Below, one piece after another: positions 9,601 through 59,267 of a stretch of DNA of 64,000 nucleotides. The number at the start of each line of letters is the position of its first letter. The stretch's first letter is position 1. Position numbers and translations under genes: made by a program. Source of the DNA: Patescibacteria group bacterium (GTDB lineage: Bacteria; Patescibacteriota; Patescibacteriia; PEXW01); assembly GCA_041665345.1 (NCBI GenBank), contig JBAYJA010000004.1:48122-112121 (forward strand). Reading direction: 5' to 3'. The notes beneath the pieces were generated by a model. The model worked only from the letters and a program-made list of their open reading frames with translations. It was not told the origin of the DNA and searched no databases.

Positions 9601-12600
9601 TCTGCGTAAAGGTACCGTTATTCGTAAGCGTCCCGGCAATGGTGTACACACTGTTCCCACCTGAGGTGAGCGCGCCGCCAATGGTCACATTCTTCGCGGT
9701 TACGGTTTCTGTGCCACCAATCGTCAACGTGGCGCCAGAGAGAATGCTCAGCGTGGCGCTGGTGTACGTTCCACCTGCCTGAGCAGCCAAGGTGGAGGAA
9801 TTTGCCGTGTGTACAATATTTTCATTATCATCAGCATCATACTGGCCCATGTTGGTTACCGTCACCGATGGATTGTCCACGCTCCCAATGGTCAGCACAT
9901 TTGTGTCCAAGACCAGGCCAGTAATGTTCCCCGACCCGTCATAATTCGTAACGGCTGTTGTTTCCGCACTATCGGCAACGCCATCCACAAAAACCGTAAC
10001 CGTATTCCCTGTGGCCACGGTAACGCCAGAAATAGTCCACGTTCCAGCCAAGGTTGTGGTTTGAGCTTGAATGCTCCCATTCACCGCTACTTTCACTGTC
10101 CCGCCTGAACTGTTCGACGTGCCAGCTACGTCTATACCACAGGTTGCGCCAGCACTGACTGTAATATTCGTATTTCCGCTATTCGTAGACTGGGAGAAGG
10201 TGGCACATATTGCTGCGCCAGCATTATTTGCATCGCTAATGTCTACGTAGGAAAGTGACGCTGAAGTTGGGTTGACGTTCCAAGCGTTGCCCACACTGGA
10301 TGATTGCAGGGTGATCAGCTGGCCCAAAGCTCCAGTGACTGTCCACGTACCCGCGATGGTCTGTGTTGTGGCAGCGGTAACGGTAATTACCTTTGCCGCA
10401 CCAATACTGGTGACCGAAAGATTATTGAAGGTTGTACTGCCGGCAATAGTTGAAGCCGCTGTAGTAGTAAGCGCAATGGTGCCGGAATTATGGGTGAACG
10501 TGCCAGCATTAGAGAAGCCGGCTCCAAAATTTGTGGTGGTAGCTGAGCTTGCCTGGAAAACCGTATCCGCCGCAATCGTCACATTACCGGTGACAGTGAA
10601 GGTTGGATCCCAGGTATTCACCTGGAAAATCGTAGTGCTGGAACCGGTGCCAGTGTTCAATAGGTCCAGCGTGGAGGCGATGGTCAGGGTTTGCGAACCC
10701 GCAGTGCCGGCAGTCACCGTGCGCCCCGCCGTCGTGCCACTATTATCAATTTCCACTTTTTGGTAATCCGTGCGGGCACCCATGGATTGATCAGTGGCCG
10801 TGGCGTCCATTCGTAAAATGAGACTTGCGCCCAGTGTCCCGCCGGTTGGGAAAGTTGTAGCACTTCGGTAGGTAAGCCGACCCGGGCCGTTGATAGTGCC
10901 GCTTAAGGTAAGCGTGGCGCCAGTGTGGGTAATAGTGCGGCCGGAACTAATGGTCAAGACGTTACTTGCTCCAGACAATAGTAGAGTATTTGTAACAGCA
11001 ATATCTGATGTTTGTACCGTTACAGCTCCACTGGCGTTTCCAATATCCAGGTCATAAAATGTTGTGCTACTTGAGCCGTCAATTGAGCCTGCGCTCCCTG
11101 TAAGACGTACTCGACTGTCATTATGGGTAAAAGTTCCGTTGTTCGTGAATGTCCCACCAACCGTCAAGTTTGATGTGGATGTAAATGTGCTTGGGGTCAA
11201 TGATCCAGAAATCAACAATGCATTACTTACGGTTAAGTTATTTGCAATACTCATGCTGCCACTCGACGTAAAATTGTAGAGTGTGCTACCTCCAGTATAT
11301 GCGGTTAATGTTTTTGAGGTGCCATCCATGATGACCGTATTCCCAGTTGACGCAACGTAACAATACGTAGCCAGAAAAGAGTTGCATGTTGCATCAAAAT
11401 TTCCTGAGATAGTCCAGATCCCAGAACCCGACGACACTGGTTCCGTGCCGTCGCCAGTACCCAATATATCAAAGTCACCACCAATATTCACCGTGGGATT
11501 ATTGGTTACACCGGTGACAGCCATATCCCCAGTGCCATTAGCATAGACGTAAAAGTGGCTACTGGCGCCAGAAAGTGTATACATTCCAGTGGCAAAAGTC
11601 GTAGTTCGACCCGTTGCGCCACTATTGAAGAACTCAACCGTGTTCCCATACGTCCGCGCGTCAAACGTCGTGCTAGCAATATCTCCACCAGTGGCATCGT
11701 ACCTCGTAATCGCACTTATGATTCCCACCGTACCTGGACCACCACTCGTGTTGGTAAAGGTGATGCGGCCCGGACCGGCAATGGTACTGGAACTTGTAAG
11801 CAATACGTTTGCTCCAGTATGCGTCAATGTTATCCCACTGGCTATGGCCAGCGTGGCGTCCGTGTTGACGAGGAGGGTATTTGTAACCGTCAAATCTCCC
11901 GTCTGCAAGGTCAGGGTACCTGTACTCACTGGGTCATAGCGAAGATTGTAGAGAGTCTGACCATTGCTGGTTATGGTTTTCCCAATACCGGTGGTGAACA
12001 CCGTTCCAGTCCCTGCATCCACGGTTAATCCAGAAGCCATTACAAAATTTCCATCGATATGTGTGGAAGACCCTAGCGTGTAGGTGGGTGTTCCACTTGC
12101 TTGCTGCAAGGTTAGGTTATTGAAGTTGCCTACGTAAATTGTGGTCGCACCAGTACCGCTGTATACAAAAGTTGAAGTGCCAGGAATGAGTACTGTGAAG
12201 CCAGACTCATCCACTATCGGTGTCCCTGAGCCGGACAGGGTCCAGGTTTTTGCCCCAGCATTGAGCGAGTGCATGTTAAAACTCTCCCCGGCGGCAGTTG
12301 CCTCAAGAGTAAGCACATTAGTGACAGTTACCCCGCCATTCCCTGTAGCTGTTGTGGTAAAAATGTTTCCCCCAGATTGCTCCAAAGTGAGGTTATAGAA
12401 TGTCCACCCAGTGGCACCACCAAAGTTCCCTGTCTCACTAAGCGTGAAAGTTGGTGTGCCGCTTGTAGTTGTTACCGTTCCATCACCTGTGACGGCCCCA
12501 CCATTCACGGTCATATCTGCATTTACAGTCAGGGTTGAACTCGTGTCCACGACAACATCCCCAGTGACGGTGAAAGTCCCAACTGCAACCGTGAGTGCCG

Positions 12601-15600
12601 AAGCCACACTCCCATTCCCCACAGTTAGGTTATTGGAAACCGTTGCAGCTTTCTGCAAAGTCGTTGTCGCGGCTGTCCCATCGCCAATCACTAAATTGTA
12701 AATGGTAATTGCTCCGCTGGCGCCATTGGTTCCCAAATTTCCAGTCCCGCGCATGGTTACGGTGGGAGTTCCACTGGATGCGATGATCCCGGTTGTCGTA
12801 TTTGTAAAGTCGCCGCCACCGACGGTCAGGTTTGCGCCAACCGTGAAGGTTGACCCAGTACCCACTGTCACATCACCGCCAGTTACAGTAGTCGCAGCGG
12901 AGCTCAATGCAGTGGTTGCCGTAGTACCATCACCAATCAGGAGATTGTAAAACGTAAGTGTAGGGGTTGTGCCACCACCAATACTCCCACTACCCCGCAT
13001 GGTTGTAGTTGCGGTCCCAGTGGAACGAGTAACAACAGCACTCGTGCCTGCAGTTGTAATATCACCGCCAGCAACAATCGTGTTTGCATCAATATTCAAC
13101 GTTGCCCCGCCATCCACCAAAATATCCCGGCCAATGGTATTCGTGGCGGTGTCGAGAGATGCCGTACCACCGTCATCTATGTGAAAATCTCCGCCTGTAC
13201 TATTGGTGGTCACGGTCCCGCCCGGATCGTACGTGTCACCCGCCCACACATGAAACTCCATGCCAGACTCCACGGTCAAGTTACCAGTAGTAACGCTATA
13301 CCGAACACCAACATTCGCTCCAGTATCAGCTGTCGCTAATTTTGCATTTGTCATGGGCCCTGCGTCTTCGTGACGCACCGAGGTGTGATCTTGATAAATG
13401 TGCAAATCAACAATATCTGACGTCGTGTCAGCAGCCAGGGTCACCGTTGTCCCCTTAATTGCTTCAACGCTATCAATGAAAATTGCAATTGGGTCTGCGG
13501 CGGTGCTTGGGCGAGCAGCTGCGATAGCAAATGAACCATTACTCAAGGTGCAGTCAGCGGTCTGCTCAGACGCACTGCCATTCACGGACGCACGGACGGT
13601 TATGGCATTTGCCGAACAGTCATACGCCGTTGGGGTTTCATTGGTGTAGATTTTCCCATAGATCGAAATGGATGCTGGCACATACTCAACTAAGAGCCAC
13701 AGCGTTGTTACCTGCAATTGTTCGGGAGAGAGGAGGTTGCTTGTATTTAAATTGCGAACACCGATTTGCGCGCTATCCAGGGTCGTCGTTGTCCAGGCGG
13801 TTAACTGCTGCGGCCGGGTATAGGCGGTCATGCCATAAATTCTTGGAATCGCCGAATGGTGCGACATCCATGTCGTTGTCGTGAAATTCTCTTTCGTCCC
13901 TTCAATAACCGCCCCACTCGCACTATCTTTCAATCGAACTGCGGTTGTGAAAGCCGACGTATTCCCGATGTTGGCACGCATACCAGCAGAAACCAGAGAA
14001 ATTGTGTCTGAAGCACCAATGGACTGTGTCGAACTATCAAAAAGATTAACGTCCGTAATAGTGTTCGCTGTGGCTGTGTACAGGTAAGTTGTTGCATCAT
14101 CTGGGTCTGCTTCATCCACATAGGTATAGTCATTCGTAAAACCCGTATTATCCCCGGCGGCATTTGGTTTCAGGTGTGCTATCGACCCTGCGCCAGGGTA
14201 TCCATTTTGCGTTGTACCAGCATTCTGGTTCACCGCCACATCATCGAAGTACCAATCGCCTTGCGTTTGCGCTTCAGAATTTAGGTTGCCACCAAGTGCA
14301 ATTGTTGTTACACCATTAAGAAGGTCTCTGGTTGAGCTGGATCCAAAATTGGTTCCATTTATTCTGCCTTCAACCGTATCAGTTGCACCCGCACCAGACG
14401 AATTTATTTGGAATTCCACCCGGTACCATGTGCTGGTACTCAAGGCGGCTGACGTGCCAATCGGCGTCCCGCCAGAATCTTCATCGTGTAGCTCCAGTGC
14501 GCCAGTGCTGGTCAGCACCAGGAACACTCGGTCTGTAGTCCCGGAATCTCGAAACGACATGATGCGATTACTCGCACTCGGCAAGGTTTCAATCCGGAGA
14601 TACGCCCGGGCATAGTATGGGCCGTCTGCATTCGCTGCCACAAAATCTTGATTCACACCTTCAGCCGAACCCGAACTCATCCCGTTAATGCGCAACGATG
14701 CGCCTCCAGAGCGGTAGTAGGTTGCAGTTGTGTTGATGGTTGGTCCGCCTGCAATCCCCGCCCACTCTTCACCCGCGCTTACCGTTTGCATTTCAAAACC
14801 AGATGACCACAACCGACCACCTTCTGCTGGCTCATACTCCACCAGCAACCACATCGTCGTTACCAGGAGATCGGGAATTGCATCAGTTGCGGTCACGCGT
14901 AATAAACCATCGTCAATGTTCGCAGCGGTCATTACATCGTAATCTGCAGCCGAGGTTTGATCACCGTAGGAAGTTTGCTTGTAGGTTCGTGGAGCCGCGT
15001 TGCCATTGGTGGTATAGGCGGTCGCGCTATCAGAAATACTCGTTGACTGGTCAACTGCATTCCCACTTGGGATTTTTACCTGCAGATTATGGGCACCAGC
15101 TGCTGCACTGAGACGCGTATACCGAATCCCAGCTTGCGTCAAAATTATTCTATCTTTCGCATTCATACCCTGACTTCCTGTACTTTCTAGGGACACCTCA
15201 AGAAAATCCGTCCCGGCGTCACTATCACAGGTCACCGTTGTTGTCGTATCATCTGGTCCACCAGCGCCACGATCATTTACGGCATCCCATGAGCTAGTTG
15301 ACCCACTGCAGGTATTCGAAGAAGCGCCGCTTGGTTGTCCATCTGGCATGAGGTGTACAATTTTTCCCGCCCCTGGCCAGTTTTCCGGTATGCTTGGGGT
15401 GATGCCGGCATCGTCAGAATTAATTGCCAAATCGTCCCAGAATATTGTTGAGGCTCCACCCGTATCAGTTGAAAGCGTACCAATGCGTACAACGTTGGAA
15501 CCATTCGCATGGTTCACCGTGCCTGACGAGAACGTCACGCCATCCACCTTGGCCTCAAGGTAGGTAGTGCCAATCGTTGTGGTGTCACTCCGAAACTCAA

Positions 15601-17620
15601 GCCGATACCAAGTACTAGTGGAGAGAGCTGCAGAAGTCCCGGTCTGCTGCGCGTTGTCTTCATCATTCCACAATTCCAATGTCCCATCACTATTTAACCG
15701 AATACTCGCCTGAACAGAGGGGCCACTGTCGTAAAACTCCATAATATTCACACGCGTTTCTGGCATATTGGTGATATTCACATACGCGCGGAAGTAGTAG
15801 TCATTCGTTGCATTTGCGTTCGAATATTGGAATGTTGCGCCCGAAGTTGCTGCACTCTCATTTGTTTGCAGCGCCGCAACGCCAGAACGAAAGGTGGAGG
15901 TATCAATAGTGGGTGCAGTACCAACTGTCGCTGTAAATTCTTCATTTGCCGTGACGGTTTGCAATTCAAACCCAGAGCTCCACAGACGTGTAATACTTGC
16001 CGAACCCACCGCGTCACTCGCAATCTGCCAGTGGCGTAACTCTTCAAACACTGGCTCGGCACTCCCAGTCTTTATCAAGCGCGCCTTCCCCAGCAAGAAA
16101 AGTTCCGGGCTAATGTCTGGTGGATTCACTCGGTAGGTCAGCGTGTATATCTTCCCGCCCTTCCACTGCACAGGCCAGCGTATGGTCAGCCGATTGTCAG
16201 CAGCAACAGTTTTCCCTTTGCCAGACACCGCAGACACCTCAAAGGAAGTTGGAACCGAGTCTTCAAAAAAACCGGCCACGTCTTTTTGCGGACGTACGGT
16301 GAGAGTAACTGGATAATCTTCAACCGGATAGATGCGGGTAGGCGCATCACGATGCACGTCCAATGTCACCATAGCTCGCACGGCAATTGCATCTTGGATT
16401 GTGTACTCGCCAAACTTGGTCTCCGCTTTGAGATCCAAGGTGTACATCCCTTCATCGCCACCCTCATACACTGCACTGTAGTCAGGCGTATTGGTCACGG
16501 TAATGGGGCCACACTCTGTGGAACGCGTAATTGACCCAGCATCAGTGGTGAAGGTTTGCACTCCCCGACTTGGGTTGGTTATAGTAAGCCATAATTTCGC
16601 ATCGCAAATGGTGTGCCCTTGCGGATCCAGCACACCCATCCCCACGTCAATATTTTCCCCTGGGTGGTAAATGGATTTTGGTGTGTTCAGCACCAGCACT
16701 CCCCAGTAGAAATCTTTCTTCACCGTGGTTTCTTTGTTCCCCTGCACAATGGTAATTTCCGCCGTATACTTTCCAGGCTTGTGCAGCATTTCGTTCCGCA
16801 CTTCAATGCGTTCGTAAGTAGACCGGCCCTCCGTCACCCGCGTCACGTCATACTCTGCCGGGACTTCCGCGCCATCAGGCCCAACCAGCTTCTTGGCTTC
16901 CACGGTTCGCTCAGTTTTGGTGAATGGTAAAAAGGAGAAGCGGGATTGCTTTTCCACTTCCACCTTCAGCACAGGGTCTTCAGAGTTCTTCAGCTGCGTG
17001 TCTTCCACCTGCACCACATCCCCAGAGAGGAACAGCGGTTCTCGCTTTGGCTTGGCCACCTGCTCCACATCCAAACCTATGCCATCCACGTAGACGGTTG
17101 CTGCTGCATCTGGAGACAAGGCAATGTACCGCACCCGAACCTGAAACGTATCAATATTCCCACGGTGTAGCAGCGGAAAAGCGGCTCGCCAGTACCCGCC
17201 ATGCTGCGCGTTACTAACATCTTGGTTCAACCCAAAAGAATCAAGCCGTGTCCAGGTCTTGCCATCCAAACTGGATTCCATCACCACCAAGTCTTCAGAA
17301 TCTTGACCAGCTTTCCCAGCCAAGGAGAGCACAAGCTCTGCTTGGGAAAAAGACGCGTCCGGATGAAAGTCACTTGGTAGGGCAAAATTCTTGCAGACCA
17401 GCTGCGCTGCCCCAGAACCACCACCCGCTTGGGCTGAAGCATCTTGGGGGAATTGCGCTAGCCCAGTATTTCCCAATGCTTGAATTTCCTGCGCCTTGTC
17501 ACTTCGATCCCAGCCTGTGCATGACTGCGGCCGAATATGCAGCGTCTGCGGTTCAGTCTCTGCACGCGACACCAGGGCTACACCAAAGAAGAGCAGACAG
17601 CTCAGGCTCGCCAGTACCAT
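6656..17620 (-). CDS. Giant secreted surface protein (about 3655 aa mature ORF): Thr/Gly-rich beta-helix-like repeats, two tandem ConA/LamG-like lectin modules, C-terminal conserved beta domain
   Basis: Single 11.3 kb ORF. The track start 17932 is a TTG preceded by an implausible basic leader. ATG at 17620 begins MVLASLSCLLFFGVALVSRAETEP, a signal peptide. LamG-like blocks: ...IRLNSDGTLELWNDEDNAQQTGTSAALSTSTWYRLEF and ...LTSTGALELHDEDSGGTPIGTSAALSTSTWYRVEF. Large internal duplications, for example ...RYDGSSANIASTTLDARTYGGRVELF versus ...RYDATGGDIASTTFDARTYGNTVEFF. The C-terminus ends YIATTTF. Confidence 0.7.
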   Translation of the reverse strand: MVLASLSCLLFFGVALVSRAETEPQTLHIRPQSCTGWDRSDKAQEIQALGNTGLAQFPQDASAQAGGGSGAAQLVCKNFALPSDFHPDASFSQAELVLSLAGKAGQDSEDLVVMESSLDGKTWTRLDSFGLNQDVSNAQHGGYWRAAFPLLHRGNIDTFQVRVRYIALSPDAAATVYVDGIGLDVEQVAKPKREPLFLSGDVVQVEDTQLKNSEDPVLKVEVEKQSRFSFLPFTKTERTVEAKKLVGPDGAEVPAEYDVTRVTEGRSTYERIEVRNEMLHKPGKYTAEITIVQGNKETTVKKDFYWGVLVLNTPKSIYHPGENIDVGMGVLDPQGHTICDAKLWLTITNPSRGVQTFTTDAGSITRSTECGPITVTNTPDYSAVYEGGDEGMYTLDLKAETKFGEYTIQDAIAVRAMVTLDVHRDAPTRIYPVEDYPVTLTVRPQKDVAGFFEDSVPTSFEVSAVSGKGKTVAADNRLTIRWPVQWKGGKIYTLTYRVNPPDISPELFLLGKARLIKTGSAEPVFEELRHWQIASDAVGSASITRLWSSGFELQTVTANEEFTATVGTAPTIDTSTFRSGVAALQTNESAATSGATFQYSNANATNDYYFRAYVNITNMPETRVNIMEFYDSGPSVQASIRLNSDGTLELWNDEDNAQQTGTSAALSTSTWYRLEFRSDTTTIGTTYLEAKVDGVTFSSGTVNHANGSNVVRIGTLSTDTGGASTIFWDDLAINSDDAGITPSIPENWPGAGKIVHLMPDGQPSGASSNTCSGSTSSWDAVNDRGAGGPDDTTTTVTCDSDAGTDFLEVSLESTGSQGMNAKDRIILTQAGIRYTRLSAAAGAHNLQVKIPSGNAVDQSTSISDSATAYTTNGNAAPRTYKQTSYGDQTSAADYDVMTAANIDDGLLRVTATDAIPDLLVTTMWLLVEYEPAEGGRLWSSGFEMQTVSAGEEWAGIAGGPTINTTATYYRSGGASLRINGMSSGSAEGVNQDFVAANADGPYYARAYLRIETLPSASNRIMSFRDSGTTDRVFLVLTSTGALELHDEDSGGTPIGTSAALSTSTWYRVEFQINSSGAGATDTVEGRINGTNFGSSSTRDLLNGVTTIALGGNLNSEAQTQGDWYFDDVAVNQNAGTTQNGYPGAGSIAHLKPNAAGDNTGFTNDYTYVDEADPDDATTYLYTATANTITDVNLFDSSTQSIGASDTISLVSAGMRANIGNTSAFTTAVRLKDSASGAVIEGTKENFTTTTWMSHHSAIPRIYGMTAYTRPQQLTAWTTTTLDSAQIGVRNLNTSNLLSPEQLQVTTLWLLVEYVPASISIYGKIYTNETPTAYDCSANAITVRASVNGSASEQTADCTLSNGSFAIAAARPSTAADPIAIFIDSVEAIKGTTVTLAADTTSDIVDLHIYQDHTSVRHEDAGPMTNAKLATADTGANVGVRYSVTTGNLTVESGMEFHVWAGDTYDPGGTVTTNSTGGDFHIDDGGTASLDTATNTIGRDILVDGGATLNIDANTIVAGGDITTAGTSAVVTRSTGTATTTMRGSGSIGGGTTPTLTFYNLLIGDGTTATTALSSAATTVTGGDVTVGTGSTFTVGANLTVGGGDFTNTTTGIIASSGTPTVTMRGTGNLGTNGASGAITIYNLVIGDGTAATTTLQKAATVSNNLTVGNGSVASALTVAVGTFTVTGDVVVDTSSTLTVNADMTVNGGAVTGDGTVTTTSGTPTFTLSETGNFGGATGWTFYNLTLEQSGGNIFTTTATGNGGVTVTNVLTLEATAAGESFNMHSLNAGAKTWTLSGSGTPIVDESGFTVLIPGTSTFVYSGTGATTIYVGNFNNLTLQQASGTPTYTLGSSTHIDGNFVMASGLTVDAGTGTVFTTGIGKTITSNGQTLYNLRYDPVSTGTLTLQTGDLTVTNTLLVNTDATLAIASGITLTHTGANVLLTSSSTIAGPGRITFTNTSGGPGTVGIISAITRYDATGGDIASTTFDARTYGNTVEFFNSGATGRTTTFATGMYTLSGASSHFYVYANGTGDMAVTGVTNNPTVNIGGDFDILGTGDGTEPVSSGSGIWTISGNFDATCNSFLATYCYVASTGNTVIMDGTSKTLTAYTGGSTLYNFTSSGSMSIANNLTVSNALLISGSLTPSTFTSTSNLTVGGTFTNNGTFTHNDSRVRLTGSAGSIDGSSSTTFYDLDIGNASGAVTVQTSDIAVTNTLLLSGASNVLTISSGRTITHTGATLTLSGTINGPGRLTYRSATTFPTGGTLGASLILRMDATATDQSMGARTDYQKVEIDNSGTTAGRTVTAGTAGSQTLTIASTLDLLNTGTGSSTTIFQVNTWDPTFTVTGNVTIAADTVFQASSATTTNFGAGFSNAGTFTHNSGTIALTTTAASTIAGSTTFNNLSVTSIGAAKVITVTAATTQTIAGTWTVTGALGQLITLQSSSVGNAWNVNPTSASLSYVDISDANNAGAAICATFSQSTNSGNTNITVSAGATCGIDVAGTSNSSGGTVKVAVNGSIQAQTTTLAGTWTISGVTVATGNTVTVFVDGVADSAETTAVTNYDGSGNITGLVLDTNVLTIGSVDNPSVTVTNMGQYDADDNENIVHTANSSTLAAQAGGTYTSATLSILSGATLTIGGTETVTAKNVTIGGALTSGGNSVYTIAGTLTNNGTFTQSTSTITMTGTSNSLTGSTATTFNNLTINPASTGTITVSTSDLTVSGALDVADGDTLSIGSGRIVNAPGTLTLNTTGTISGDGTLRFTDASSGPGTGGTLSSIVRYDGSSANIASTTLDARTYGGRVELFTNSGTAKTFTFPTGSFTLSGASSHLYVITDGVGDATLIGASNNPTVTVGGDVDFTGTGGGSEVITSGTGVWTVSGNVDFTGGTYTASTDNTLKMNGTSKTLTAAGNELQKFEVSGGSVATADAVLVNKTFDITGGGFTQAANANLTVYGNFTIATGTTFTAATGSGILIMDGNPTPMTFTDNTSPKQDMGNVQVGLSPGTTDLGSDFTAKSVTIPTGDIFNTNGYDLDIGTGGITIVGTLDATDDVETDETFMDTDGKFDLQTGGTFTPDQSTLTMTLASTVVANATTDLITVGTGNPYNVIVNDGGGTYTLTVEVEDPLVVTNNITITGGVLDTKTGESNSISVGNNWTNNDSFTARSATVTFTATDTGNTIGGTMGDLDDFYDLVFNGSGGEWTTNTAMTVGNDLTVTAGSLLGATDITMYGTLAGGGTVTRSGGTFLHRVAAAKNFGSTANANNWTFNNLSFETSGATDRTVTFATGGTGQVIVSGTLTIGNASDSNVTTLDNETNDRILDANGAVTITSKGLLNGSSTASFTVAGNWTNNGDFTDNTGTVTLDGAAQQTVDGQLTGASDRFNNLTITNSSGADPVTSPSVIFAAAAETAATFTAQTANTKLRFLAGGTYTFNNIAFNGQATGTRVFLRSSTTGTLWDLNSLGTQTVSNTDVRDSNACPGDDIDATDGTNYDSTNNPCWNINTLTFSISDTAVGFGTLSSAAARWANGAATGSASAVSAHTLAVTTNARSGYALTYFGSTLSGPEDITAATFTGDADGTPSSEQFALSITTDGNATIPSAYQKASDNYSFVPSTATTLMSEAGSTVIETASVYYICNISSATTAGAYSTNVTYIATTTF

Positions 17621-17950
17621 TCGAGTTCGGTAGGTCACTTGCACCCGTTGGTGCTGCCGCGTTTGTAACTCATGCCGCATTGCCCGTTGGAAACTGTGCG
17701 TGCGGGCACGGTACACCTTTCGCGCTGACTGGGGAGCTCCGGCAACCGATGACTTTTTTGCAACTACAGTTTTCTGTCGAATCACCCCGCGTTTTGCAAC
17801 AACTCGACGACCTCTGAGTCCAAGTGGACGCGACTTTAGGTACGTCGTTGTGCTTTGCGGTTTGGGCATGGAGGAACGTTTTGTTCGCCGAACGAAGCAC
17901 TTGGCCTTCCGTGTCTTTATACAAGAATCCAATGTATATTATGCCACATT

Positions 17951-18845: not shown

Positions 18846-21767
18846 ATGGCACATGCACATGCCTCAGCACTTCGTCATCAGTCAAAAGCATCTGTACCTC
18901 GGTTTAGTGCTTTTTTGGTCATTATTCCTGCTGCCTTAGTTGTCTCCGGATTACTCTTCTCCCTTCCCCACTTGCAAGCCGGTGGAGCAGGCTTGAGTTT
19001 TCTTGGCTTCAAAAAACCAGCGCCTAGCCAAAAGTACGTCTGCCCCAGTGCCTCCTATACAAAGGACTTTACTAGTGTCTTGAAAAATGGAGTGCCAGCC
19101 AGTTCCGCACAAACCGTAGTGGAAACCAATGCGCGGTTACTGGGCCAAGCTGAGCCAAGTAAGGATCTCATTGCGAGCCGCACAGATCTCACTGCCCGGA
19201 AAACTGCACTCCTTGGTCTCATGGCAACCGCACCAGACAAAGCCTTAGCTGCAGTTTTGAGCCCAAATATTGGGGATGCGTACCAAACATGGACGACGAA
19301 CTGCGTGGAAGAACGCGTGACCGTGACGGGAAAAGTGACGGAATATGATTATACTGCGGCGAAAGGCATTGCTCCAAAAGGGCCCGATGCACTGTTCATG
19401 TTGCAAACTGTTTCTGGTAGCACTCTTGCGCTTCAACCAGCCAAAGCACTGCACACCGCCTTTCTTACAGGCGATACGCTAACCATTACCGGCTTTCAAC
19501 TTGATGACCGTATAGTTTTTGATGGTCGGTCTTCAGTGACAGTGGATCCATCCGGCCTGGGAACTGGCTACACTGTAGCGAAGGAGAAGACTAATCGTGA
19601 TGCAGTAACCGGCCCCCAAGAGACTATTGTACTGCTGGTGAATTTCCAAAATACACCTCAGCCGGCATATCCGGTTTCAACTATTGAAAACATCGTCTTC
19701 TCACAAATGAACAGCTACTACCAGCAGAATTCGTACAACAAAATTAGCATAGTTGGTGATGTGGAAAATTGGCGGACGATCCCGATGGACACGACCTGCG
19801 ATTTTGCCTCAACCATTGGGCCAGTGGTCCAAGCTTTTGATGCCGACGTTGACTTTCGTCAGTACGAACGGCTCGTGGTGTTTGCGCCGCTTGGACCCTC
19901 ATGCCCTTTCATTGGCATCAGCAGCGTTGGGCAAACCACGGTAGCGACGAATGATGGTCCGGTTGTTATGTCAACGTCCTACATCTTGTCCAATTACGCC
20001 GGCGTTGCGCTAACCGCGCACGAGTACGGCCATGGTTTGGGTCTGCACCATGCAAGTTTTTACAATTGCCCAAATACCCCCTACCAAGAAACTGGCTGCG
20101 ATATTACTGAGTACGGCAGTCCATACAGTACCATGGGTAATCATGCACTCTTTGGCTACTTCAACGCTCTGGAAAAAGATTTCCTTGGGTGGTTTGTACC
20201 ATCCAATATCGAGACGGTAACCGAAAGTGGCACCTATACCATAGATCACCTAGAAGTTGCATCAACCAATCTGAAGGCACTGAAGTTTCAGCGCTCAGCA
20301 AATGACTTTTTGTACGCTGAATACCGGCAACCAATTGGGCATGACACAGGATTTGGATCGACGAATGCCTATGACGGTGCGCTCCTCCACATTCGCGCAA
20401 ATACGGGCGTATCTGGCCCACAGGCGAACCGTTCTTTCTTGCTTGATGCTGCGCACCCACCAGTGTGGGGAAGCGCAAATGACGCAGCGTTGACCGTTGG
20501 ACAAACTTTTGTTGACCCCCTGACCAATACTTCTGTAAAGACAGTCGAAAAGGGCGACGGGGACGTAGACATCCAGGTGCAAATTGGCAAACATGACTTT
20601 ACCGCACCGCAAGTGAGTATTACATCGCCAGCTGAGGGCAGCACGGTGAGTGGCCAATTTACCGTCACTGTTGACGCACAAGATGCATCTGGAATCGAAA
20701 AAGTTGTGTTGCAGAACGGGTCACTGTTATTCCGATCTGAAATTGGCACTGACACGCAAGCCCCGTTTGCATTTAACGTCGACAGTTCCATGTTCCCAGC
20801 CGGGATCGCGACTCTCGTTGCAGTTGCCTATGATAAGTCTGGTGCGCCCTATGGAGTGGCAAATAACTCTGGGAGCAGTGGCTTCTTTACGGTGAATATC
20901 GTGGGTGGGGATGTAACTCCTCCGACCACCAGCATGACAGCTCCGCTGAACAATACCGCTGTACGAAATCTGGTCACCGTCAGTGCCCAAGCAGATGACA
21001 ACGGATTCATTAGCCAGCTGAAGCTCTTCGTGGATGGGGTACAGAAGTTCTTCCAATTTGGTGATGCCTCCAGCATCTCCGGGGTACTGGATTTAACCCA
21101 AGGGACGCACACCGCGTATTCGGTTGCAGTAGACCAAGCAGGATTAACGACGCAAAGCGCAACTTCAACTTTCGTCGTTGACAATACTGCCCCAACCGTC
21201 AGCCTGGTGGATCCTGCTCAAGGAGCTTCCGTTTCGGCCAGCATCGCACTCACCGCCACCGCTGCGGACAATGACGCTATTCAGAAAGTGGTCTTCGTTC
21301 GCGACTCTGGCACGGTCATTGGTGAAGATCCCACCGCGCCATACAGCGTTACCTGGGATACCTCACTTGTTCCTCCTGGGCCACACACCCTTGGAGCCGT
21401 GGCGTATGACCGCGCAGGGAATACCGCAACATCAAGCACGCACGCAATCACTGTGCAGGCCACTGCTACCTACGTCTGCGGGGATAGTGACAGCAACCAA
21501 ATAGTCACCATCTCCGACGCCGTCCACCTCATCAACTACATCTTCAGCGGTGGACCCGCCCCAAGCCCCTTGGTGGCAGCGGACGCCGACGGGAGTGGCG
21601 TAGTAACCATCTCCGACTCCGTCCACCTCATCAACTACATCTTCAGCGGTGGGCCGACACCAAGCTGCGTTACCAACCCACCCAGTGTGAAACTGGCACC
21701 GGATCCAACCGAAGGCCAAACCTTGCAGAGTTTCAAAGCTGCACACCCAGAGATTTTTAGCCAGTAA
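18846..21767 (+). CDS. Secreted zinc metalloprotease (HExxH) with Ig-like/BIG repeats and C-terminal dockerin module
   Basis: 973 aa. Signal-anchor LVIIPAALVVSGLLFSL. Zinc motif TAHEYGHGLGLHHA. Repeated Ig-like domains (FTAPQVSITSPAEGSTVSGQFTVTVDAQDASGIEKV...). C-terminal dockerin repeats GDSDSNQIVTISDAVHLINYIFSGG and ADADGSGVVTISDSVHLINYIFSGG. Confidence 0.7.
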   Translation: MAHAHASALRHQSKASVPRFSAFLVIIPAALVVSGLLFSLPHLQAGGAGLSFLGFKKPAPSQKYVCPSASYTKDFTSVLKNGVPASSAQTVVETNARLLGQAEPSKDLIASRTDLTARKTALLGLMATAPDKALAAVLSPNIGDAYQTWTTNCVEERVTVTGKVTEYDYTAAKGIAPKGPDALFMLQTVSGSTLALQPAKALHTAFLTGDTLTITGFQLDDRIVFDGRSSVTVDPSGLGTGYTVAKEKTNRDAVTGPQETIVLLVNFQNTPQPAYPVSTIENIVFSQMNSYYQQNSYNKISIVGDVENWRTIPMDTTCDFASTIGPVVQAFDADVDFRQYERLVVFAPLGPSCPFIGISSVGQTTVATNDGPVVMSTSYILSNYAGVALTAHEYGHGLGLHHASFYNCPNTPYQETGCDITEYGSPYSTMGNHALFGYFNALEKDFLGWFVPSNIETVTESGTYTIDHLEVASTNLKALKFQRSANDFLYAEYRQPIGHDTGFGSTNAYDGALLHIRANTGVSGPQANRSFLLDAAHPPVWGSANDAALTVGQTFVDPLTNTSVKTVEKGDGDVDIQVQIGKHDFTAPQVSITSPAEGSTVSGQFTVTVDAQDASGIEKVVLQNGSLLFRSEIGTDTQAPFAFNVDSSMFPAGIATLVAVAYDKSGAPYGVANNSGSSGFFTVNIVGGDVTPPTTSMTAPLNNTAVRNLVTVSAQADDNGFISQLKLFVDGVQKFFQFGDASSISGVLDLTQGTHTAYSVAVDQAGLTTQSATSTFVVDNTAPTVSLVDPAQGASVSASIALTATAADNDAIQKVVFVRDSGTVIGEDPTAPYSVTWDTSLVPPGPHTLGAVAYDRAGNTATSSTHAITVQATATYVCGDSDSNQIVTISDAVHLINYIFSGGPAPSPLVAADADGSGVVTISDSVHLINYIFSGGPTPSCVTNPPSVKLAPDPTEGQTLQSFKAAHPEIFSQ

Positions 21768-27747: not shown

Positions 27748-27821
27748 GCGGGCATCGTATAATGGTAATACCTCAGCTTTCCAAGCTGATGCCGGGGGTT
27801 CGATTCCCCCTGCCCGCTCCA
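27748..27821 (+). tRNA. tRNA-Gly (anticodon UCC), CCA encoded
   Basis: GCGGGCATCGTATAATGGTAATACCTCAGCTTTCCAAGCTGATGCCGGGGGTTCGATTCCCCCTGCCCGCTCCA folds as a cloverleaf with a 7-bp acceptor stem, anticodon loop TTTCCAA (anticodon TCC) and a T-arm GGGGG-TTCGATT-CCCCC. Confidence 0.8.
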
Positions 27822-55053: not shown

Positions 55054-55164
55054 GGGTGAAGTATAGCAAGGGGTTGGTCAAGAAGTTAGGTTTGGGTAGA
55101 GCGGCGAGTATGGATAAAGGTTGCAGGTGTGGGGAAATGCAGAAGTTTCAATCATTGAGTGGGG

Positions 55165-55193
55165 TTGACAAAACTGAATAAATGCGCTACACT
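55165..55193 (+). promoter_or_regulatory. Sigma70-type promoter TTGACA-N17-TACACT, giving a roughly 150-nt 5' UTR for the CSD-fusion gene
   Basis: ttgaca at 55165-55170, tacact at 55188-55193, ATG at 55348. Confidence 0.4.
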
Positions 55194-55347
55194 ACAGCGT
55201 TCTCAACAATTGTAGGTACTTTGAAAATTGACAATTTTCATCTCCAGTTCCTTGCGTGGGAAATTCGTCTTGCGCAGGGTTGCTGGAGGTGAAAGGGATA
55301 TCTCCGAAGCAATGTGTGTGTTTGCCTGATCCCTAGAGGGAGGCGTA

Positions 55348-56751
55348 ATGCCTTACCAACAGTATTCCGGTGAAGTAGTCACCGTGAATGTCGAGAAACA
55401 ATTTGGCTTCATCGGCTTGCTGACCGTACGTTTATCGAACGACCAGGAACACGACCTGGTAACGTCGGAAGATATTTTCGTCCACCAAAATGACGTCGAC
55501 ACGACGTTAATCCCAGGATTGCGTGTTGCCTTTGACGTGGAACTCGATGACAAGCGTGGCGACGGTACGTTCCGGGCAGTGAATGTCATCGCTCTGGTGG
55601 AGCACGACTTGCTGCCGGCTATGGTGGAACCGATTCCTGGTTTCCACGTGGTGGTGCCAGCGGGTCAGAGTTTCAAACTCACCGCCTATCACGCGCAGAT
55701 GAAGGACGTGCGACCCGAGGTAGTAGCTCAGGTGGAGGCAAATCAGCCGCTGCCGGGTATTCCACGGGAAGATATCCGATTGGACAATGAAGAGACCAGG
55801 AAGTTCTTGCAGGCTTTCCTGCTGTACACGTTTCCTTCGTTGGTAGATTATGGGGCCGATTTCAACATCGGCACCCCGGATGACACGGCCATGCAGCTCA
55901 CGCTACAGGAAGCAATCGAGAGCCACCGCGCACTTGGGTTAACTTCCCAGGTGGAGGTGCTTGAAGAGGAAGTCAAACGTTTTGGTAAGTTTCGTGGGGC
56001 ACTGAACTTACTCTGGGCAGATGGCGTTGCACGGCCGGGATCTATTATTCCGATCGAGAATTTGCCGGATCTCTTTATGGCGGTTCCAGTCTGGTACCAC
56101 TACTTCGCCAACGATACCCAAGGGAAGAGTGAGGCAGTTGAAGCAGCGAATACGGATGATCCATGGGTGCATGCGCGCACTGCTTTCTTCTGCGACCTCG
56201 TGCCAACCCGGCGTTGGTCGGACCTTTACCAGATGTTCAACCGTCGGTTGCGAACCCTGGAAAACTACAAGGGGGACATCATTCCACCGCATGTTGCACG
56301 ACGGCTCCAGAACGCTGCTGAGGTGTTTGACTACTTAGTCATCGCAACTCCGTACCTGGAAGAAGCTGGTAAGGACTGGGAAAACCTGGACTGGATTCGC
56401 TCCATTGATCCGTACGTCCTGGGTTTCATCAAGGATTCTCCTGTGTTCTTCGTAGTGGCACGGTTCAGTAACAGTGGGACGTTCCCGCTGTACAACGAGC
56501 TACTCGGCGACACGGTGGAATTTCTCCGGTCGAACCGATCCAAGTTGGATGGGTTTAATACCGTCAGTAGACCGTTCTGGTACAGGGGTGGCGATACCGG
56601 CGTGAATGACGGCAACCCCTTGCGGGATTGCTTTGATGGTTTGTTAGGTCAGCATCTGAGCAAACTCACTGAAGAGCTGCTCAGGCAGTTTGACCAGGGC
56701 ACACTCTTCCCCTGGATTCGTCAGGAAGAAGAGCAACCTACTAAACAGTAG
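55348..56751 (+). CDS. Cold-shock-domain protein fused to a roughly 390-aa domain of unknown function
   Basis: N-terminal GEVVTVNVEKQFGFIGL...DIFVHQNDV...GLRVAFDV...GTFRAVNV is a cold-shock domain. The C-terminal domain has no match. AGGGAGG ribosome-binding site. Confidence 0.6.
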   Translation: MPYQQYSGEVVTVNVEKQFGFIGLLTVRLSNDQEHDLVTSEDIFVHQNDVDTTLIPGLRVAFDVELDDKRGDGTFRAVNVIALVEHDLLPAMVEPIPGFHVVVPAGQSFKLTAYHAQMKDVRPEVVAQVEANQPLPGIPREDIRLDNEETRKFLQAFLLYTFPSLVDYGADFNIGTPDDTAMQLTLQEAIESHRALGLTSQVEVLEEEVKRFGKFRGALNLLWADGVARPGSIIPIENLPDLFMAVPVWYHYFANDTQGKSEAVEAANTDDPWVHARTAFFCDLVPTRRWSDLYQMFNRRLRTLENYKGDIIPPHVARRLQNAAEVFDYLVIATPYLEEAGKDWENLDWIRSIDPYVLGFIKDSPVFFVVARFSNSGTFPLYNELLGDTVEFLRSNRSKLDGFNTVSRPFWYRGGDTGVNDGNPLRDCFDGLLGQHLSKLTEELLRQFDQGTLFPWIRQEEEQPTKQ

Positions 56752-56771
56752 ATTTTTACTGAGTACTTTCA

Positions 56772-56803
56772 AAGCAACCTCGCTCCACGGGGTTGCTTTT
56801 TTC
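56772..56803 (+). terminator. Rho-independent terminator
   Basis: aagcaacc-loop-ggttgctt followed by tttttt. Confidence 0.5.
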
Positions 56804-56831
56804 TTGACTTCCTTTCACCGCATGCTACACT
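56804..56831 (+). promoter_or_regulatory. Candidate promoter TTGACT-N16-TACACT for the HAD gene
   Basis: ttgact at 56804-56809, tacact at 56826-56831. Same -10 hexamer as the CSD-gene promoter. Confidence 0.35.
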
Positions 56832-56867: not shown

Positions 56868-57698
56868 ATGGTACGTATCCAACACGCGTTCTGTGATTTA
56901 GATGACACGCATTTACATTTCATGGCTGGCCATCGACCCGCTATTGCCTTTCTTGCCAAGGAGGTTGGCCAAAAATTTGCAAATGCATTTGATGCCACGT
57001 ATCAAGTGCTGCACCTTGGTGGTCAAGCGCAAGATGGGGATTGGTCCATGGTCCCTGGTGGCCAGGAGGCATACGAACAGCTTCGCAAGAAATTGCAACT
57101 GACAAAAATTGGCAGCCGATCCTTCCCCTGGTCACGCGAACTCGCGGCACTGCATGCGGCGCAAGTTGTGGACATGCAACTGCATCCAAGAGAGGCAGTG
57201 GAAATTGCGGCAAAGTACTGGGCGATATTGAGTAGCAATATTACGCTCTACCCAGATGCGCTGCGTTTCCTGGGCCGCTTAAAAGCAGAAGGTGTGCAGA
57301 ACCACATCTCCACTGGGTCTGACAGCAGTCTGCGCTGGGCAGAAAATGGTTGGGTGTATGACCCAAAATTGGCCAAGAAAATTAAAATGTTCCGCGTACG
57401 AGTACTTGATGAGTTTGGTTTTTCTCCGGCTAGTGTCACAACCGGAGATCCAATTGACAAACCCGATAAAGCATTTTACGAACAGGTTATGCTCAATGCG
57501 TGCATTGAAACTGACCTGACGACAATTGATCCCGCAACCTGCATCACGGTAGGTGATTCTTTCCGGGGCGACGTCGCAATGCCCATGCAGTGCCTGGGCA
57601 TTCCGCAGGGGTACTGGCTCCAGCGAGGACAACCAAGACGGCAGCTGACAGAGAACATTCACCTGATTGGCTCCTTGGACGAAATTCCGTTGGAGTAA
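56868..57698 (+). CDS. HAD-superfamily hydrolase
   Basis: Motif I FCDLDDTH (DxDxT). AAGGAGG ribosome-binding site. Confidence 0.6.
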   Translation: MVRIQHAFCDLDDTHLHFMAGHRPAIAFLAKEVGQKFANAFDATYQVLHLGGQAQDGDWSMVPGGQEAYEQLRKKLQLTKIGSRSFPWSRELAALHAAQVVDMQLHPREAVEIAAKYWAILSSNITLYPDALRFLGRLKAEGVQNHISTGSDSSLRWAENGWVYDPKLAKKIKMFRVRVLDEFGFSPASVTTGDPIDKPDKAFYEQVMLNACIETDLTTIDPATCITVGDSFRGDVAMPMQCLGIPQGYWLQRGQPRRQLTENIHLIGSLDEIPLE

Positions 57699-57720: not shown

Positions 57721-58944
57721 TCACACATGTGAGGCTGTTTTTGCTTGAAAATATTTTTGGATTCGCCGTAACCATCTTCCGGTAAGTGACCCAATAACCA
57801 TCAGCCAAAAAATTCCAGTCCATCCGTACAAATCAAGCAATGGACTCCGTGTTGCATCCCACCAAGTCCAAGAGATAACGAATTGCGTCACCACAAAGCT
57901 AAAGCAAAATAGTACTACCGCCCGCAGCCAATGTCTTGGAAGAAAATAGGCGAGTGATATACTTGGCCCCAGAGTGAGTACGAGCGCTAGGAAGAATGAA
58001 TGCGTGATAAAAACAAGCACGGACATCCCCACCCCAAGAATGACCAAAATACCTGATGGCTCATTCCGTACCTGTCGTGCCACTGCGGTACGAAATGTTT
58101 GTAATCCCAAAAGCACAAATGTTACAGCTGCAACGCCGAAGGAAATGAAATGCCGTTGGATGAGAATCGGATCCATAGCATCTTTGATCGGATTGGCCAC
58201 ATAATCTATCATTTCCCTTTTAAAAGGCCAGAATACAGATTCAAGAAAAAACTCCATGAAAATAAAAACCAAAAAGGGTACGCCGATCAGCAAAAAACTA
58301 TTCAGGTAGAGCCGATCGAGTTTGAAGCGTGTCGGACCAAAGTCAGTAGGCTGTTCCATAATTCCCGCAACAAGTGTTACTGCACTTAATCCAATAGTAA
58401 CCGGAATTGCTGTCAGGAAACTGAGTAGTATATCCCAACCCACGGACTGCGGTCCGCCACCAGCGGGTGGTGTCAACATTGCCACCGTAGTGCTATATAT
58501 GAGAACCAAAATTCCAAGGTGAACAAAAAAACGCGTTAATGCATTTCCGGAACGATGCATTCTGGTCGCGGTTCGACCAACCCAAATCGCCATTGCCGTA
58601 CATCCAAAGTAGGCTACGAATTTTCCTAACATATAACTCAAACTTGCCTGCACAGATTGCCCAATGTTCGGAGCATTTTTTCCAAGGAGAAACCCTAGTG
58701 CAAGAAAAAACGCGATGCCGACAATCGGGACAAGCTGTAAACGAAAATTTGTATGCAACCACCCAATATGCACTCGGTTCAGCCGGGTGGCGAGTTGATC
58801 GGGTTTGCCCAGGGCATCTTCAGCAGATTCCGACTCGTCAACATCATCCAAATGCCCTTGCACTTCGGCAATGAGCTCTGCCCGTTTAGGTTCCCCTACC
58901 CGGAGTTTGGCGGTGAAGAGCTCTAAAAATTCCTGGGGGCTCAT
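57721..58944 (-). CDS. PadR-associated membrane protein (DUF1700-like N-terminus)
   Basis: ATG 58944 (MSPQEFLELFTAKLRVGEPKRAELIAEVQGHLDD...) overlaps the PadR stop as ATGA. Multiple TM helices. The track's 5' extension was rejected. Confidence 0.5.
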   Translation of the reverse strand: MSPQEFLELFTAKLRVGEPKRAELIAEVQGHLDDVDESESAEDALGKPDQLATRLNRVHIGWLHTNFRLQLVPIVGIAFFLALGFLLGKNAPNIGQSVQASLSYMLGKFVAYFGCTAMAIWVGRTATRMHRSGNALTRFFVHLGILVLIYSTTVAMLTPPAGGGPQSVGWDILLSFLTAIPVTIGLSAVTLVAGIMEQPTDFGPTRFKLDRLYLNSFLLIGVPFLVFIFMEFFLESVFWPFKREMIDYVANPIKDAMDPILIQRHFISFGVAAVTFVLLGLQTFRTAVARQVRNEPSGILVILGVGMSVLVFITHSFFLALVLTLGPSISLAYFLPRHWLRAVVLFCFSFVVTQFVISWTWWDATRSPLLDLYGWTGIFWLMVIGSLTGRWLRRIQKYFQAKTASHV

Positions 58945-59267
58945 ATAGCTGCAGCGTGCACAATGCGCGTGATGGTTTTTTGGAAAACCGCCCAATCCTG
59001 TTTCAACGCCTTCAGTTCCTTTTGCCCGCGCGTGGTCAGTTCGTACACCCGGCGCTTGCCTGAACTCACTTCTCGCCACGTACCGGTGATGAAACCCTTC
59101 TTCTCCAGATTGTGCAGGAGTGGGTAGAGCATGCCCATCCCGAATTTAAAGGTATCCGGCATTTGGTCACGAAGCGCCTGAGCCAAGGCATACCCATGCA
59201 TAGCTTTCTGGTCCAACGCGGCCAGGATGAGCATCCGCGAATGGCCTTTGAGTTGTTCTTTATTCAT
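58941..59267 (-). CDS. PadR-family transcriptional regulator
   Basis: LILAALDQKAMHGYALAQAL...GMLYPLLHNLEKKGFI (PadR wHTH signature). Confidence 0.7.
   Translation of the reverse strand: MNKEQLKGHSRMLILAALDQKAMHGYALAQALRDQMPDTFKFGMGMLYPLLHNLEKKGFITGTWREVSSGKRRVYELTTRGQKELKALKQDWAVFQKTITRIVHAAAI

Follow-up and report, generated by a model that had tools for sequence, protein, structure and literature searches.

How is a gene controlled whose product joins a cold-shock domain (CSD) to a large protein module without known relatives? The question is raised by a 64,000-nt stretch of a Patescibacteria contig (the window; positions below are window positions unless a locus label of the form L0xx is given), in which a 467-codon open reading frame (ORF) encodes such a fusion. 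A large part of bacterial diversity belongs to the Patescibacteria, the candidate phyla radiation, which have genomes of ~1 Mb and have almost never been cultured. To our knowledge, Rfam holds few regulatory RNA families of their own. Here we describe, upstream of the CSD-fusion gene, a leader RNA of three conserved helices that is linked exclusively to this gene family, together with a competing helix that cannot coexist with the first of the three. We put at about even the chance that this bistable leader serves as a translational switch, operated by the gene's own CSD, by temperature or by both.

The leader was recognized by reading 300 nt upstream of ~35 homologues, which share a recurring layout. 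An outer stem, P1, pairs a pyrimidine-rich 5′ arm with a purine-rich 3′ arm that resembles a Shine-Dalgarno (SD) sequence; P2 is an inner hairpin, and P3 is a stem with a large loop opening on a pyrimidine tract. In the window this three-helix RNA spans 55237-55334 within a leader of ~148 nt (Table 1), and the leader fold reaches -56.9 kcal/mol, with z = -3.9 against dinucleotide shuffles. RNAalifold recovered P1 and P2 from 23 leaders, with compensatory changes in 21 of 24 pairs. When P3 was included in a covariance model (R1), 92.8 % of the cells in the 26-sequence model alignment could pair, compared with 76 % for shuffled and ~50 % for slid alignments. Changes on both sides of the helix occur in 26 of its 27 pairs (shuffled mean 17.1), and the covariation score is 0.643 against 0.317 for the control, a level reached in 0 of 500 shuffles. 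Across the 26 leaders P1 is 97 % and P2 94 % paired, 20 of the 21 P1 and P2 pairs changing on both sides. All six P3 pairs do the same (for example GGAUAG/CUAUCC, GGGUGG/CCGCCC, GAAUGG/CCAUUC and CGGACG/CGUCCG); the pairing of P3 stands at 83 %, a figure that includes several rows, the window's among them, misregistered by the model.

This RNA accompanies one gene family only. The covariance model was run on 588 kb, comprising the window and 55 loci, and gave a single plus-strand match per locus, always abutting a gene of the CSD-fusion family. The one match in the 64-kb window lies at 55237-55350 (70.4 bits, E 3e-14). Loci outside the model-building set were matched as well (L019 with 72 bits, L012 with 51 and L015 with 34), and echoes on the reverse strand reached 15-29 bits only. 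We also scanned metagenome contigs with a gene-blind pattern built from leader sequence only. It returned 77 matches, of which four were positive by covariance model, and all four have a family homologue within ~115 nt downstream; the remaining 73 were discarded as chance matches of too loose a pattern, as expected from its information content. Rfam 15 has no family for the leader at gathering score or at E <= 10, and on 55100-55420 a search at E <= 10 returned only sub-threshold chance matches to microRNA and small nucleolar RNA families. In a scan of the whole window only a tRNA reaches gathering score; this tRNA, the only one in the window, lies at 27748-27818, distant from the CSD-fusion gene.

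A further helix competes with the three just described. One of its strands consists of the end of P2, the junction and the 3′ arm of P1, the other of the first part of the P3 loop; the two are complementary in every leader, and their pairing is incompatible with P1 and with the base of P2. It would exclude P3 too, since the 5′ arm of P3 would then sit in the loop of the alternative hairpin. The strands fit each other within a leader better than between leaders: the alternative duplex has a mean energy of -15.25 kcal/mol for own segments against -10.55 kcal/mol for mixed leaders, and none of 5000 permutations was as good. In the same test the P1 duplex gave -16.4 against -11.5 kcal/mol, and the alternative duplex of the window has -14.1 kcal/mol. 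An alternative-helix model of 30 leaders is 78.6 % paired over the whole structure, P2 apical stem included, compared with 70 % when shuffled and 40-56 % when slid. Its two Alt helices are 66.5 % and 79.2 % paired, and by a fixed-register count 12 of the 16 Alt pairs change on both sides. Support is weaker here than for P1-P3, partly because bulge positions differ between leaders.

Because the alternative helix and P1 are mutually exclusive, the leader appears to be built as a two-state device. In state A the P1 and P2 hairpin would lock the pyrimidine-rich, anti-SD-like strand against the SD-like strand, and P3 would form. In state B the first part of the P3 loop would capture the 3′ half of that hairpin, so that the anti-SD-like strand is freed. 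Transcription attenuation was considered and rejected, as no terminator-like U run follows either fold; control is thus more likely to act on translation or mRNA stability.

The gene forms a transcription unit by itself, with a promoter in front and a terminator-like hairpin behind. The end of the -10 box lies 155 nt 5′ of the ATG, hence the leader length of ~148 nt. In a consensus scan the TTGACA-17-TACACT promoter agrees with 10 of 12 consensus positions. Two promoter-like matches were found in the region of the gene and 1.8 are expected, which places the sequence match alone at chance level. Its conservation is above chance, since a match of at least 10/12 stands upstream of 22 of the 26 homologous leaders and in 2 % of control windows. 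L057, the closest relative (72 % identical), carries a TTGACA/TAATAT pair at the equivalent place, and in its alignment with the window similarity begins exactly at the -35 box and runs on through the leader. On the far side of the gene, the terminator-like element combines a 12-bp stem (6 G-C pairs) and a 5-nt loop with a following TTTCTT.

A short sequence element just before the start codon distinguishes genes with a CSD from those without. The loose form, YTG.?YTG within 45 nt of the start, is present in 34 of 41 CSD-bearing genes, in 0 of 5 CSD-less genes and in 19 of 358 neighbouring genes (5 %); for the strict form, CTG.?CTG, the counts are 27/41, 0/5 and 2/358. This YUG(N)YUG element is thus linked to CSD-bearing genes, and it recurs in divergent ones with other leader architectures. 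The window has the loose form only. By a hand calculation that ignores relatedness and concerns just five genes, the chance of finding all CSD-less genes without the element is ~6e-4. YUG(N)YUG resembles the U/G-rich sites reported for cold-shock proteins (Csps); CspA of Staphylococcus aureus, for instance, binds a UUUGUUU site (PMC8034633).

Table 1. Coordinates of the CSD-fusion gene, its leader RNA and its signals (window positions)
Feature	Position	Strand	Details
Sigma-70-type promoter	55165..55193	+	-35 TTGACA 55165-55170; 17-nt spacer; -10 TACACT 55188-55193
5′ untranslated leader	55200..55347	+	~148 nt; transcription start inferred from the -10 box
Long hairpin P1+P2	55237..55293	+	window fold
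P1	55237-55248 / 55282-55293	+	55237-55248 (UUCAUCUCCAGU, anti-SD-like) paired with 55282-55293 (GCUGGAGGUGAA, SD-like)
P2	55250-55261 / 55268-55279	+	55250-55261 paired with 55268-55279
Alternative helix	55279..55313	+	55279-55290 paired with 55300-55313 (AUCUCCGAAGCAAU)
P3 hairpin	55294-55299 / 55329-55334	+	AGGGAU paired with AUCCCU; 29-nt loop; constrained fold
Loose YUG(N)YUG copy	55322..55328	+	UUGCCUG
Candidate CSD target sequences			UCUGACUG/UUGCCUG, UUCCUUU
Shine-Dalgarno sequence	55338..55343	+	GGGAGG, 4 nt 5′ of ATG; read from sequence
ORF, CSD with orphan C-terminal module	55348..56751	+	ATG start; 467 amino acids; ORF list
Cold-shock domain	55363..55593	+	residues 6-82; ~12-residue insertion after RNP1-like strand
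Linker	55600..55677	+	residues 85-110; low confidence, poorly conserved
Helical subdomain	55684..56019	+	residues 113-224; AlphaFold helices
Alpha/beta subdomain	56020..56748	+	residues 225-467; best-conserved part
Intrinsic-terminator-like hairpin	56771-56799 (with T run to 56806)	+	20 nt after the stop codon

A protein identical to the gene product, annotated as hypothetical, has been recorded from a Patescibacteria metagenome-assembled genome (MAG), on a contig of 1.08 Mb. An AlphaFold2 model made from a 56-sequence alignment has a predicted local distance difference test (pLDDT) score of 89.3 and a predicted template modelling (pTM) score of 0.76. Residues 6-82 form a five-stranded antiparallel beta-barrel in this model and superpose on solved CSDs. 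The Pfam CSD family PF00313 matches residues 7-81 with 25.9 bits (E 9.3e-6), under its gathering cut-off of 27 bits, and matches only 12 of 56 relatives at E <= 0.1. The domain contains an RNP1-like QFGFI and an RNP2-like DIFVHQ, and almost all family members keep F21, F44 and H46; the alignment also shows that the strand-1 Trp and the last Phe of RNP2 are absent and that 12 residues are inserted. The divergent CSD very likely binds single-stranded RNA. The linker that follows falls below pLDDT 50 at residues 85-95 and 97-110, where alignment columns are variable and gappy.

The C-terminal module of 357 amino acids is an orphan, a word we use relative to solved structures and BFVD: it has no relative in Pfam, PDB or BFVD. 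Searches of Pfam (with the window protein, 56 relatives and two CSD-less forms), NCBIfam, PADLOC, PHROGs and PDB (by single sequence and by profile) returned only the CSD. Its alpha/beta subdomain, modelled at residues 225-460, carries the motifs LPDLFMAVPVWY, FQMFNRRxR, FDxVVIATPY, IDPYVxGF and ARFSxSGxFPL, with invariant residues that include N298, R299, R300, R302, D328, D354, R372 and several Trp and Pro. The pattern is compatible with an active or binding site and proves nothing. In some lineages the helical subdomain has an insertion of ~55 residues between window residues ~207 and 208 (alignment columns 307-362; for example in P0072, P0083, P0094, P0102, P0111, P0115 and P0119), which accounts for family members of 530-560 amino acids.

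Much of this agrees with the original prediction for the locus, which had correctly placed the ORF, the promoter and a leader of ~150 nt. It had described an unmistakable CSD fused to a large region without recognisable motifs, and a consensus promoter ahead of a long leader; the domain match and barrel fold, the database searches, the promoter conservation and the covariation of the leader all bear this out. The C-terminal region, for which a structure comparison had been proposed, belongs to no common family and resembles no solved structure or BFVD entry, and the leader is conserved. The fusion is spread among Patescibacteria relatives, and forms without the CSD exist alongside it. The prediction had also suggested an RNA-targeting enzyme or a regulatory scaffold; for a choice between the two, the C-terminal module offers invariant Asp, Arg and Asn residues and no related fold or sequence. 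Absent from the prediction were the covarying RNA of three helices, the helix that competes with it and the role of the C-terminal module as family core.

By sequence searches the family is small and lineage-restricted, and the organisms named for it are almost exclusively Patescibacteria. With a word-indexed search we obtained 127 relatives that align end to end at 29-72 % identity; nearly all have 430-560 amino acids. In an exhaustive profile search of 1.84 billion representatives there were 398 clusters (50 % identity) at E <= 1e-3 and 160 at E <= 1e-30, and a scan of one genome per species gave 50 loci. Named lineages comprise Paceibacterota, Moraniibacteriota and the Uhr-, Kaiser-, Nomura-, Doudna-, Falkow-, Kuenen-, Andersen- and Taylorbacteria. 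Phage, plasmid and IMG/VR collections contained no family member. Many representatives of 365-415 amino acids in the exhaustive search match profile positions 105-460 only, and at five such loci none of the upstream frames encodes a CSD. Judged by this distribution, the family core is the C-terminal module, not the CSD. A number of loci come from MAGs titled Gammaproteobacteria, Bdellovibrionales, Actinomycetes or Woesearchaeota (L007, L012, L017, L030, L034 and L035, and likewise L039, L045, L047, L053 and L055). In leader, promoter and gene they resemble the Patescibacteria loci; the titles may be binning or naming errors or real exceptions.

Two other kinds of leader were observed in the family. 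Divergent CSD-bearing relatives (~30 % identity, Uhrbacteria-like) have a second leader type, at L038:4859-4949, L041:4851-4934, L042:4888-4973, L049:4867-4949 and L051:4779-4862. In this type the first hairpin has a loop, (A)UGACGNN, that complements NNCGUCA(U), a stretch situated just 5′ of the SD and separated from the first hairpin by a second one. This pairing could form an H-type pseudoknot, and by eye loop and partner co-vary (GGA/UCC, GAC/GUC, GU/AC, GG/CC). Two of the CSD-less genes, L023 (leader at 4870-4994) and L043 (leader at 2800-2885), are preceded by a long hairpin whose 5′ arm is rich in pyrimidines and whose 3′ arm is SD-like; the purine arm of L043 (GUGAGGAG), on the 3′ side, is the SD itself. 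Neither leader has P3 or the YUG(N)YUG element. A general rule that CSD-less genes are without a structured leader was not upheld, given mixed z-scores and the long hairpin kept in these two.

The surroundings of the gene are variable. Neighbouring genes differ between loci in four contexts read by hand, and an all-against-all BLAST of 360 neighbouring ORFs from 41 loci revealed no conserved operon partner, the largest cluster covering 3 loci. Synteny with the window locus is kept only in L057, which points to vertical inheritance. NUDIX genes at first seemed overrepresented in the vicinity, but only 3 of 41 loci have a Nudix-box ORF, and the excess was rejected. A conserved upstream ORF was rejected as well: the 5-codon ATG ORF at 55311 has no start codon in L057.

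The explanation we favour, with about even confidence, is that the gene encodes an RNA-binding fusion protein and that its bistable leader is a translational switch, operated by the protein's CSD, temperature or both. The mRNA would start at the conserved sigma-70-type promoter with a leader of ~148 nt and two mutually exclusive folds, and encodes a divergent CSD, a flexible linker and a two-part module, helical and alpha/beta. The balance between states A and B would set the use of the ribosome-binding site, as it does in csp mRNA leaders. The CSD could shift that balance, or block the ribosome directly, by way of YUG(N)YUG and the pyrimidine tracts near the start codon. The outcome would be negative autoregulation, possibly temperature-dependent. 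Four elements of this scheme are inferred: that the CSD binds RNA, which of the folds is ON, what the signal is and whatever activity the C-terminal module may have. A bolder version, in which the CSD itself reads YUG(N)YUG and pyrimidine tracts and flips the folds as a new class of autoregulatory RNA switch and the C-terminal part is a new Patescibacteria-specific enzyme or chaperone module acting on RNA, is in our view doubtful.

Several results weigh against a switch at the ribosome-binding site. In the window (55338-55360) a small local hairpin, predicted for both leader states, keeps most of the SD (GGAGGC) paired to codons 2-4 (GCCUUACC), and this sequence is conserved in L057. The SD core is unpaired with a frequency of 0.39 in state A and 0.31 in state B, a weak difference (p = 0.05); by leader, exposure is lower in state B for 17 of 26 in pseudoknot-free folds. 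The freed 5′ strand pairs no better with the SD region of its own leader than with that of other leaders, in a test of low power because the SD hardly varies. Specific covariation between the P3 loop and the SD region was sought and not found. By prediction, state A lies on average ~8 kcal/mol below state B in energy, so reaching state B needs a factor or a kinetic, co-transcriptional route. The canonical Csp surface Trp and one Phe are missing from the candidate RNA-binding CSD. The CSD-less L023 and L043 keep the long hairpin with its pyrimidine 5′ arm and SD-like 3′ arm; part of the leader logic is therefore independent of the CSD and belongs to the whole C-terminal-module family. Finally, the original prediction had likened the leader to those that thermoregulate csp mRNAs, and equilibrium folding does not bear this out: the predicted window leader structure and SD exposure are identical at 5, 15, 25, 37 and 45 °C. 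A simple zipper thermometer is rejected on these folds, and temperature could act only through kinetics or with the help of a protein.

An RNA thermoswitch that needs no protein would sense temperature by itself, by kinetic trapping in transcription or differential melting of P1/P2 and the alternative helix, as reported for E. coli cspA mRNA, and the gene would then be a cold- or warm-induced RNA chaperone fusion. The two conserved exclusive folds are of similar duplex strength (P1 -16.4, alternative -15.3 kcal/mol), the gene encodes a CSD, csp leaders of like length act in this manner (PMC8034633), and the long hairpin of L023 and L043 fits a CSD-independent signal. We nevertheless regard it as unlikely: the window equilibrium structure is constant over 5-45 °C, state A is favoured by ~8 kcal/mol, nothing in Rfam, the cspA thermoregulator included, matches at E <= 10, and a thermoswitch alone leaves the tracking of CSD-bearing genes by YUG(N)YUG unexplained. 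If the alternative helix were instead a folding intermediate, the leader could be a constitutive element whose 5′-proximal stem-loop guards the mRNA from 5′-end-dependent decay and tunes translation. Stabilising hairpins sit at the transcript 5′ end, as in the ompA and aprE leaders, and in about half of the leaders P1 does begin 7-12 nt past the -10 box, practically at that end, and state A is the ground state predicted for nearly all leaders. P1 starts farther on, 34-50 nt past the -10 box, in the window and some ten other leaders, though, and a stabiliser has no need of P3, of a second strand co-varying with the P1 3′ arm or of a sequence element that tracks the CSD; a purely constitutive role is quite improbable.

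Two further explanations look to the protein product. It could be a toxic effector of a mobile or defence-type module, silenced by an elaborate leader. Some retron systems have CSD-bearing effectors, the distribution of the family is patchy and its neighbourhood variable, the gene has its own promoter and terminator, and restriction-modification, toxin-antitoxin or MORC-like genes occur in some neighbourhoods. We think this very unlikely, since there is no PADLOC or PHROGs match, no phage, plasmid or IMG/VR copy and no recurring partner gene (3 of 41 loci at most), and since the synteny with L057 speaks for vertical inheritance. Least probable of all, and hardly to be expected, is a metabolite riboswitch whose ligand would be a substrate or a signal of the C-terminal module. 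In its general layout the leader, with conserved, covarying helices and an alternative pairing, does resemble an aptamer joined to an expression platform, yet the conservation lies in helices and in simple pyrimidine and purine tracts, with no conserved set of unpaired junction positions for a pocket. The motif also goes with one gene family only, with no transporter or biosynthesis genes, and divergent members use other leader architectures, which is unusual for an aptamer.

Other features of the window were observed in passing. A second promoter-like site, TTGACT-16-TACACT with a TG extension (56804-56831), lies inside the terminator T run, starting 5 nt past the terminator stem and 37 nt upstream of a HAD-family hydrolase gene (56868-57698). 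On the minus strand, 57721-59267 holds a PadR-family regulator (58941-59267) followed by a 451-amino-acid multi-pass membrane protein with a faint HAAS-domain match, and this pair also adjoins the CSD-fusion gene in L057. Upstream of the CSD-fusion promoter a tRNA gene directly adjoins, by eye, in L005 (5680-5770), L013, L018, L042 and L045. Farther away, a giant ORF of 3757 amino acids (6656-17932, minus strand), which has no Pfam family above threshold and only a faint MG2 match (20 bits), is probably a very large surface protein of the sort common in Patescibacteria. A 973-amino-acid protein (18846-21767, plus strand) combines a reprolysin/M12-like metallopeptidase region, three Big_7 Ig-like domains and a type I dockerin, a secreted-protease architecture unusual for so small a genome.

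The locus provides a well-supported cis-regulatory RNA from Patescibacteria that has two competing folds, a candidate protein-binding element and covariation across ~30 examples. The RNA is a candidate for a new RNA family and the protein domain for a new domain family, both of known general kinds, and each could be submitted as such even without a mechanism. If the CSD operates the switch, the principle of csp leaders, in which an RNA chaperone controls its own leader, would extend to a fusion protein and to a distant phylum, and the RNA targets of the CSD would offer a handle on the function of the orphan module. Should the bolder version hold, with the CSD flipping the folds, the locus would represent both a new family of regulatory RNA and a new protein fold that comes with its own RNA-targeting domain.

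How does this system compare with those already known? Small Csps such as CspA and CspB (PF00313) are single domains of 65-75 residues, whereas the protein here has 467 residues and its relatives 430-560. It scores under the PF00313 cut-off, has ~12 residues inserted between strands 2 and 3, has lost the conserved Trp and one Phe, and carries 385 further residues. Among multidomain CSD proteins, Lin28 (with zinc knuckles), Unr/CSDE1, YB-1 and CRHSP-24 are available for comparison, as are RNase R/II, in which CSDs accompany a catalytic RNB domain. The mRNA leader of E. coli cspA is ~160 nt long, combines cold-box autoregulation with a temperature-dependent structure and is represented by the Rfam cspA family. 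The leader described here is of similar length, follows a strong sigma-70 promoter and precedes a CSD product that could likewise feed back on it; unlike cspA, its helices are different, it has no cold-box sequence and it matches no Rfam family at E <= 10.

Autoregulatory leaders are also familiar from other RNA-binding proteins, such as the ribosomal-protein operators of S15 and L1 and the thrS operator. As in these, a structured leader exclusive to the gene of an RNA-binding product, here a predicted one, has elements adjoining the ribosome-binding site. It differs from them in having no identified mimicry of a known cellular RNA target, and binding is only proposed here.

More similar are the cspB and cspC leaders of S. 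aureus, in which the long hairpin of the open fold sequesters an anti-ribosome-binding-site (anti-RBS) sequence, the alternative fold sequesters the RBS, and CspA binding to a UUUGUUU loop motif favours the locked fold (PMC8034633). There is no sequence or Rfam relationship between those leaders and the one described here, which has three helices, a dedicated decoy strand inside the P3 loop and a weak predicted difference in SD exposure, and which precedes a 467-residue fusion instead of a 7-kDa Csp. The two systems share the long leader of a CSD gene with two mutually exclusive folds, a long hairpin that sequesters a pyrimidine-rich, anti-RBS-like strand, and a U/G-rich single-stranded motif, a known Csp site there and a candidate here. 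Of the systems described, the cspB and cspC leaders come closest, the resemblance being one of logic only.

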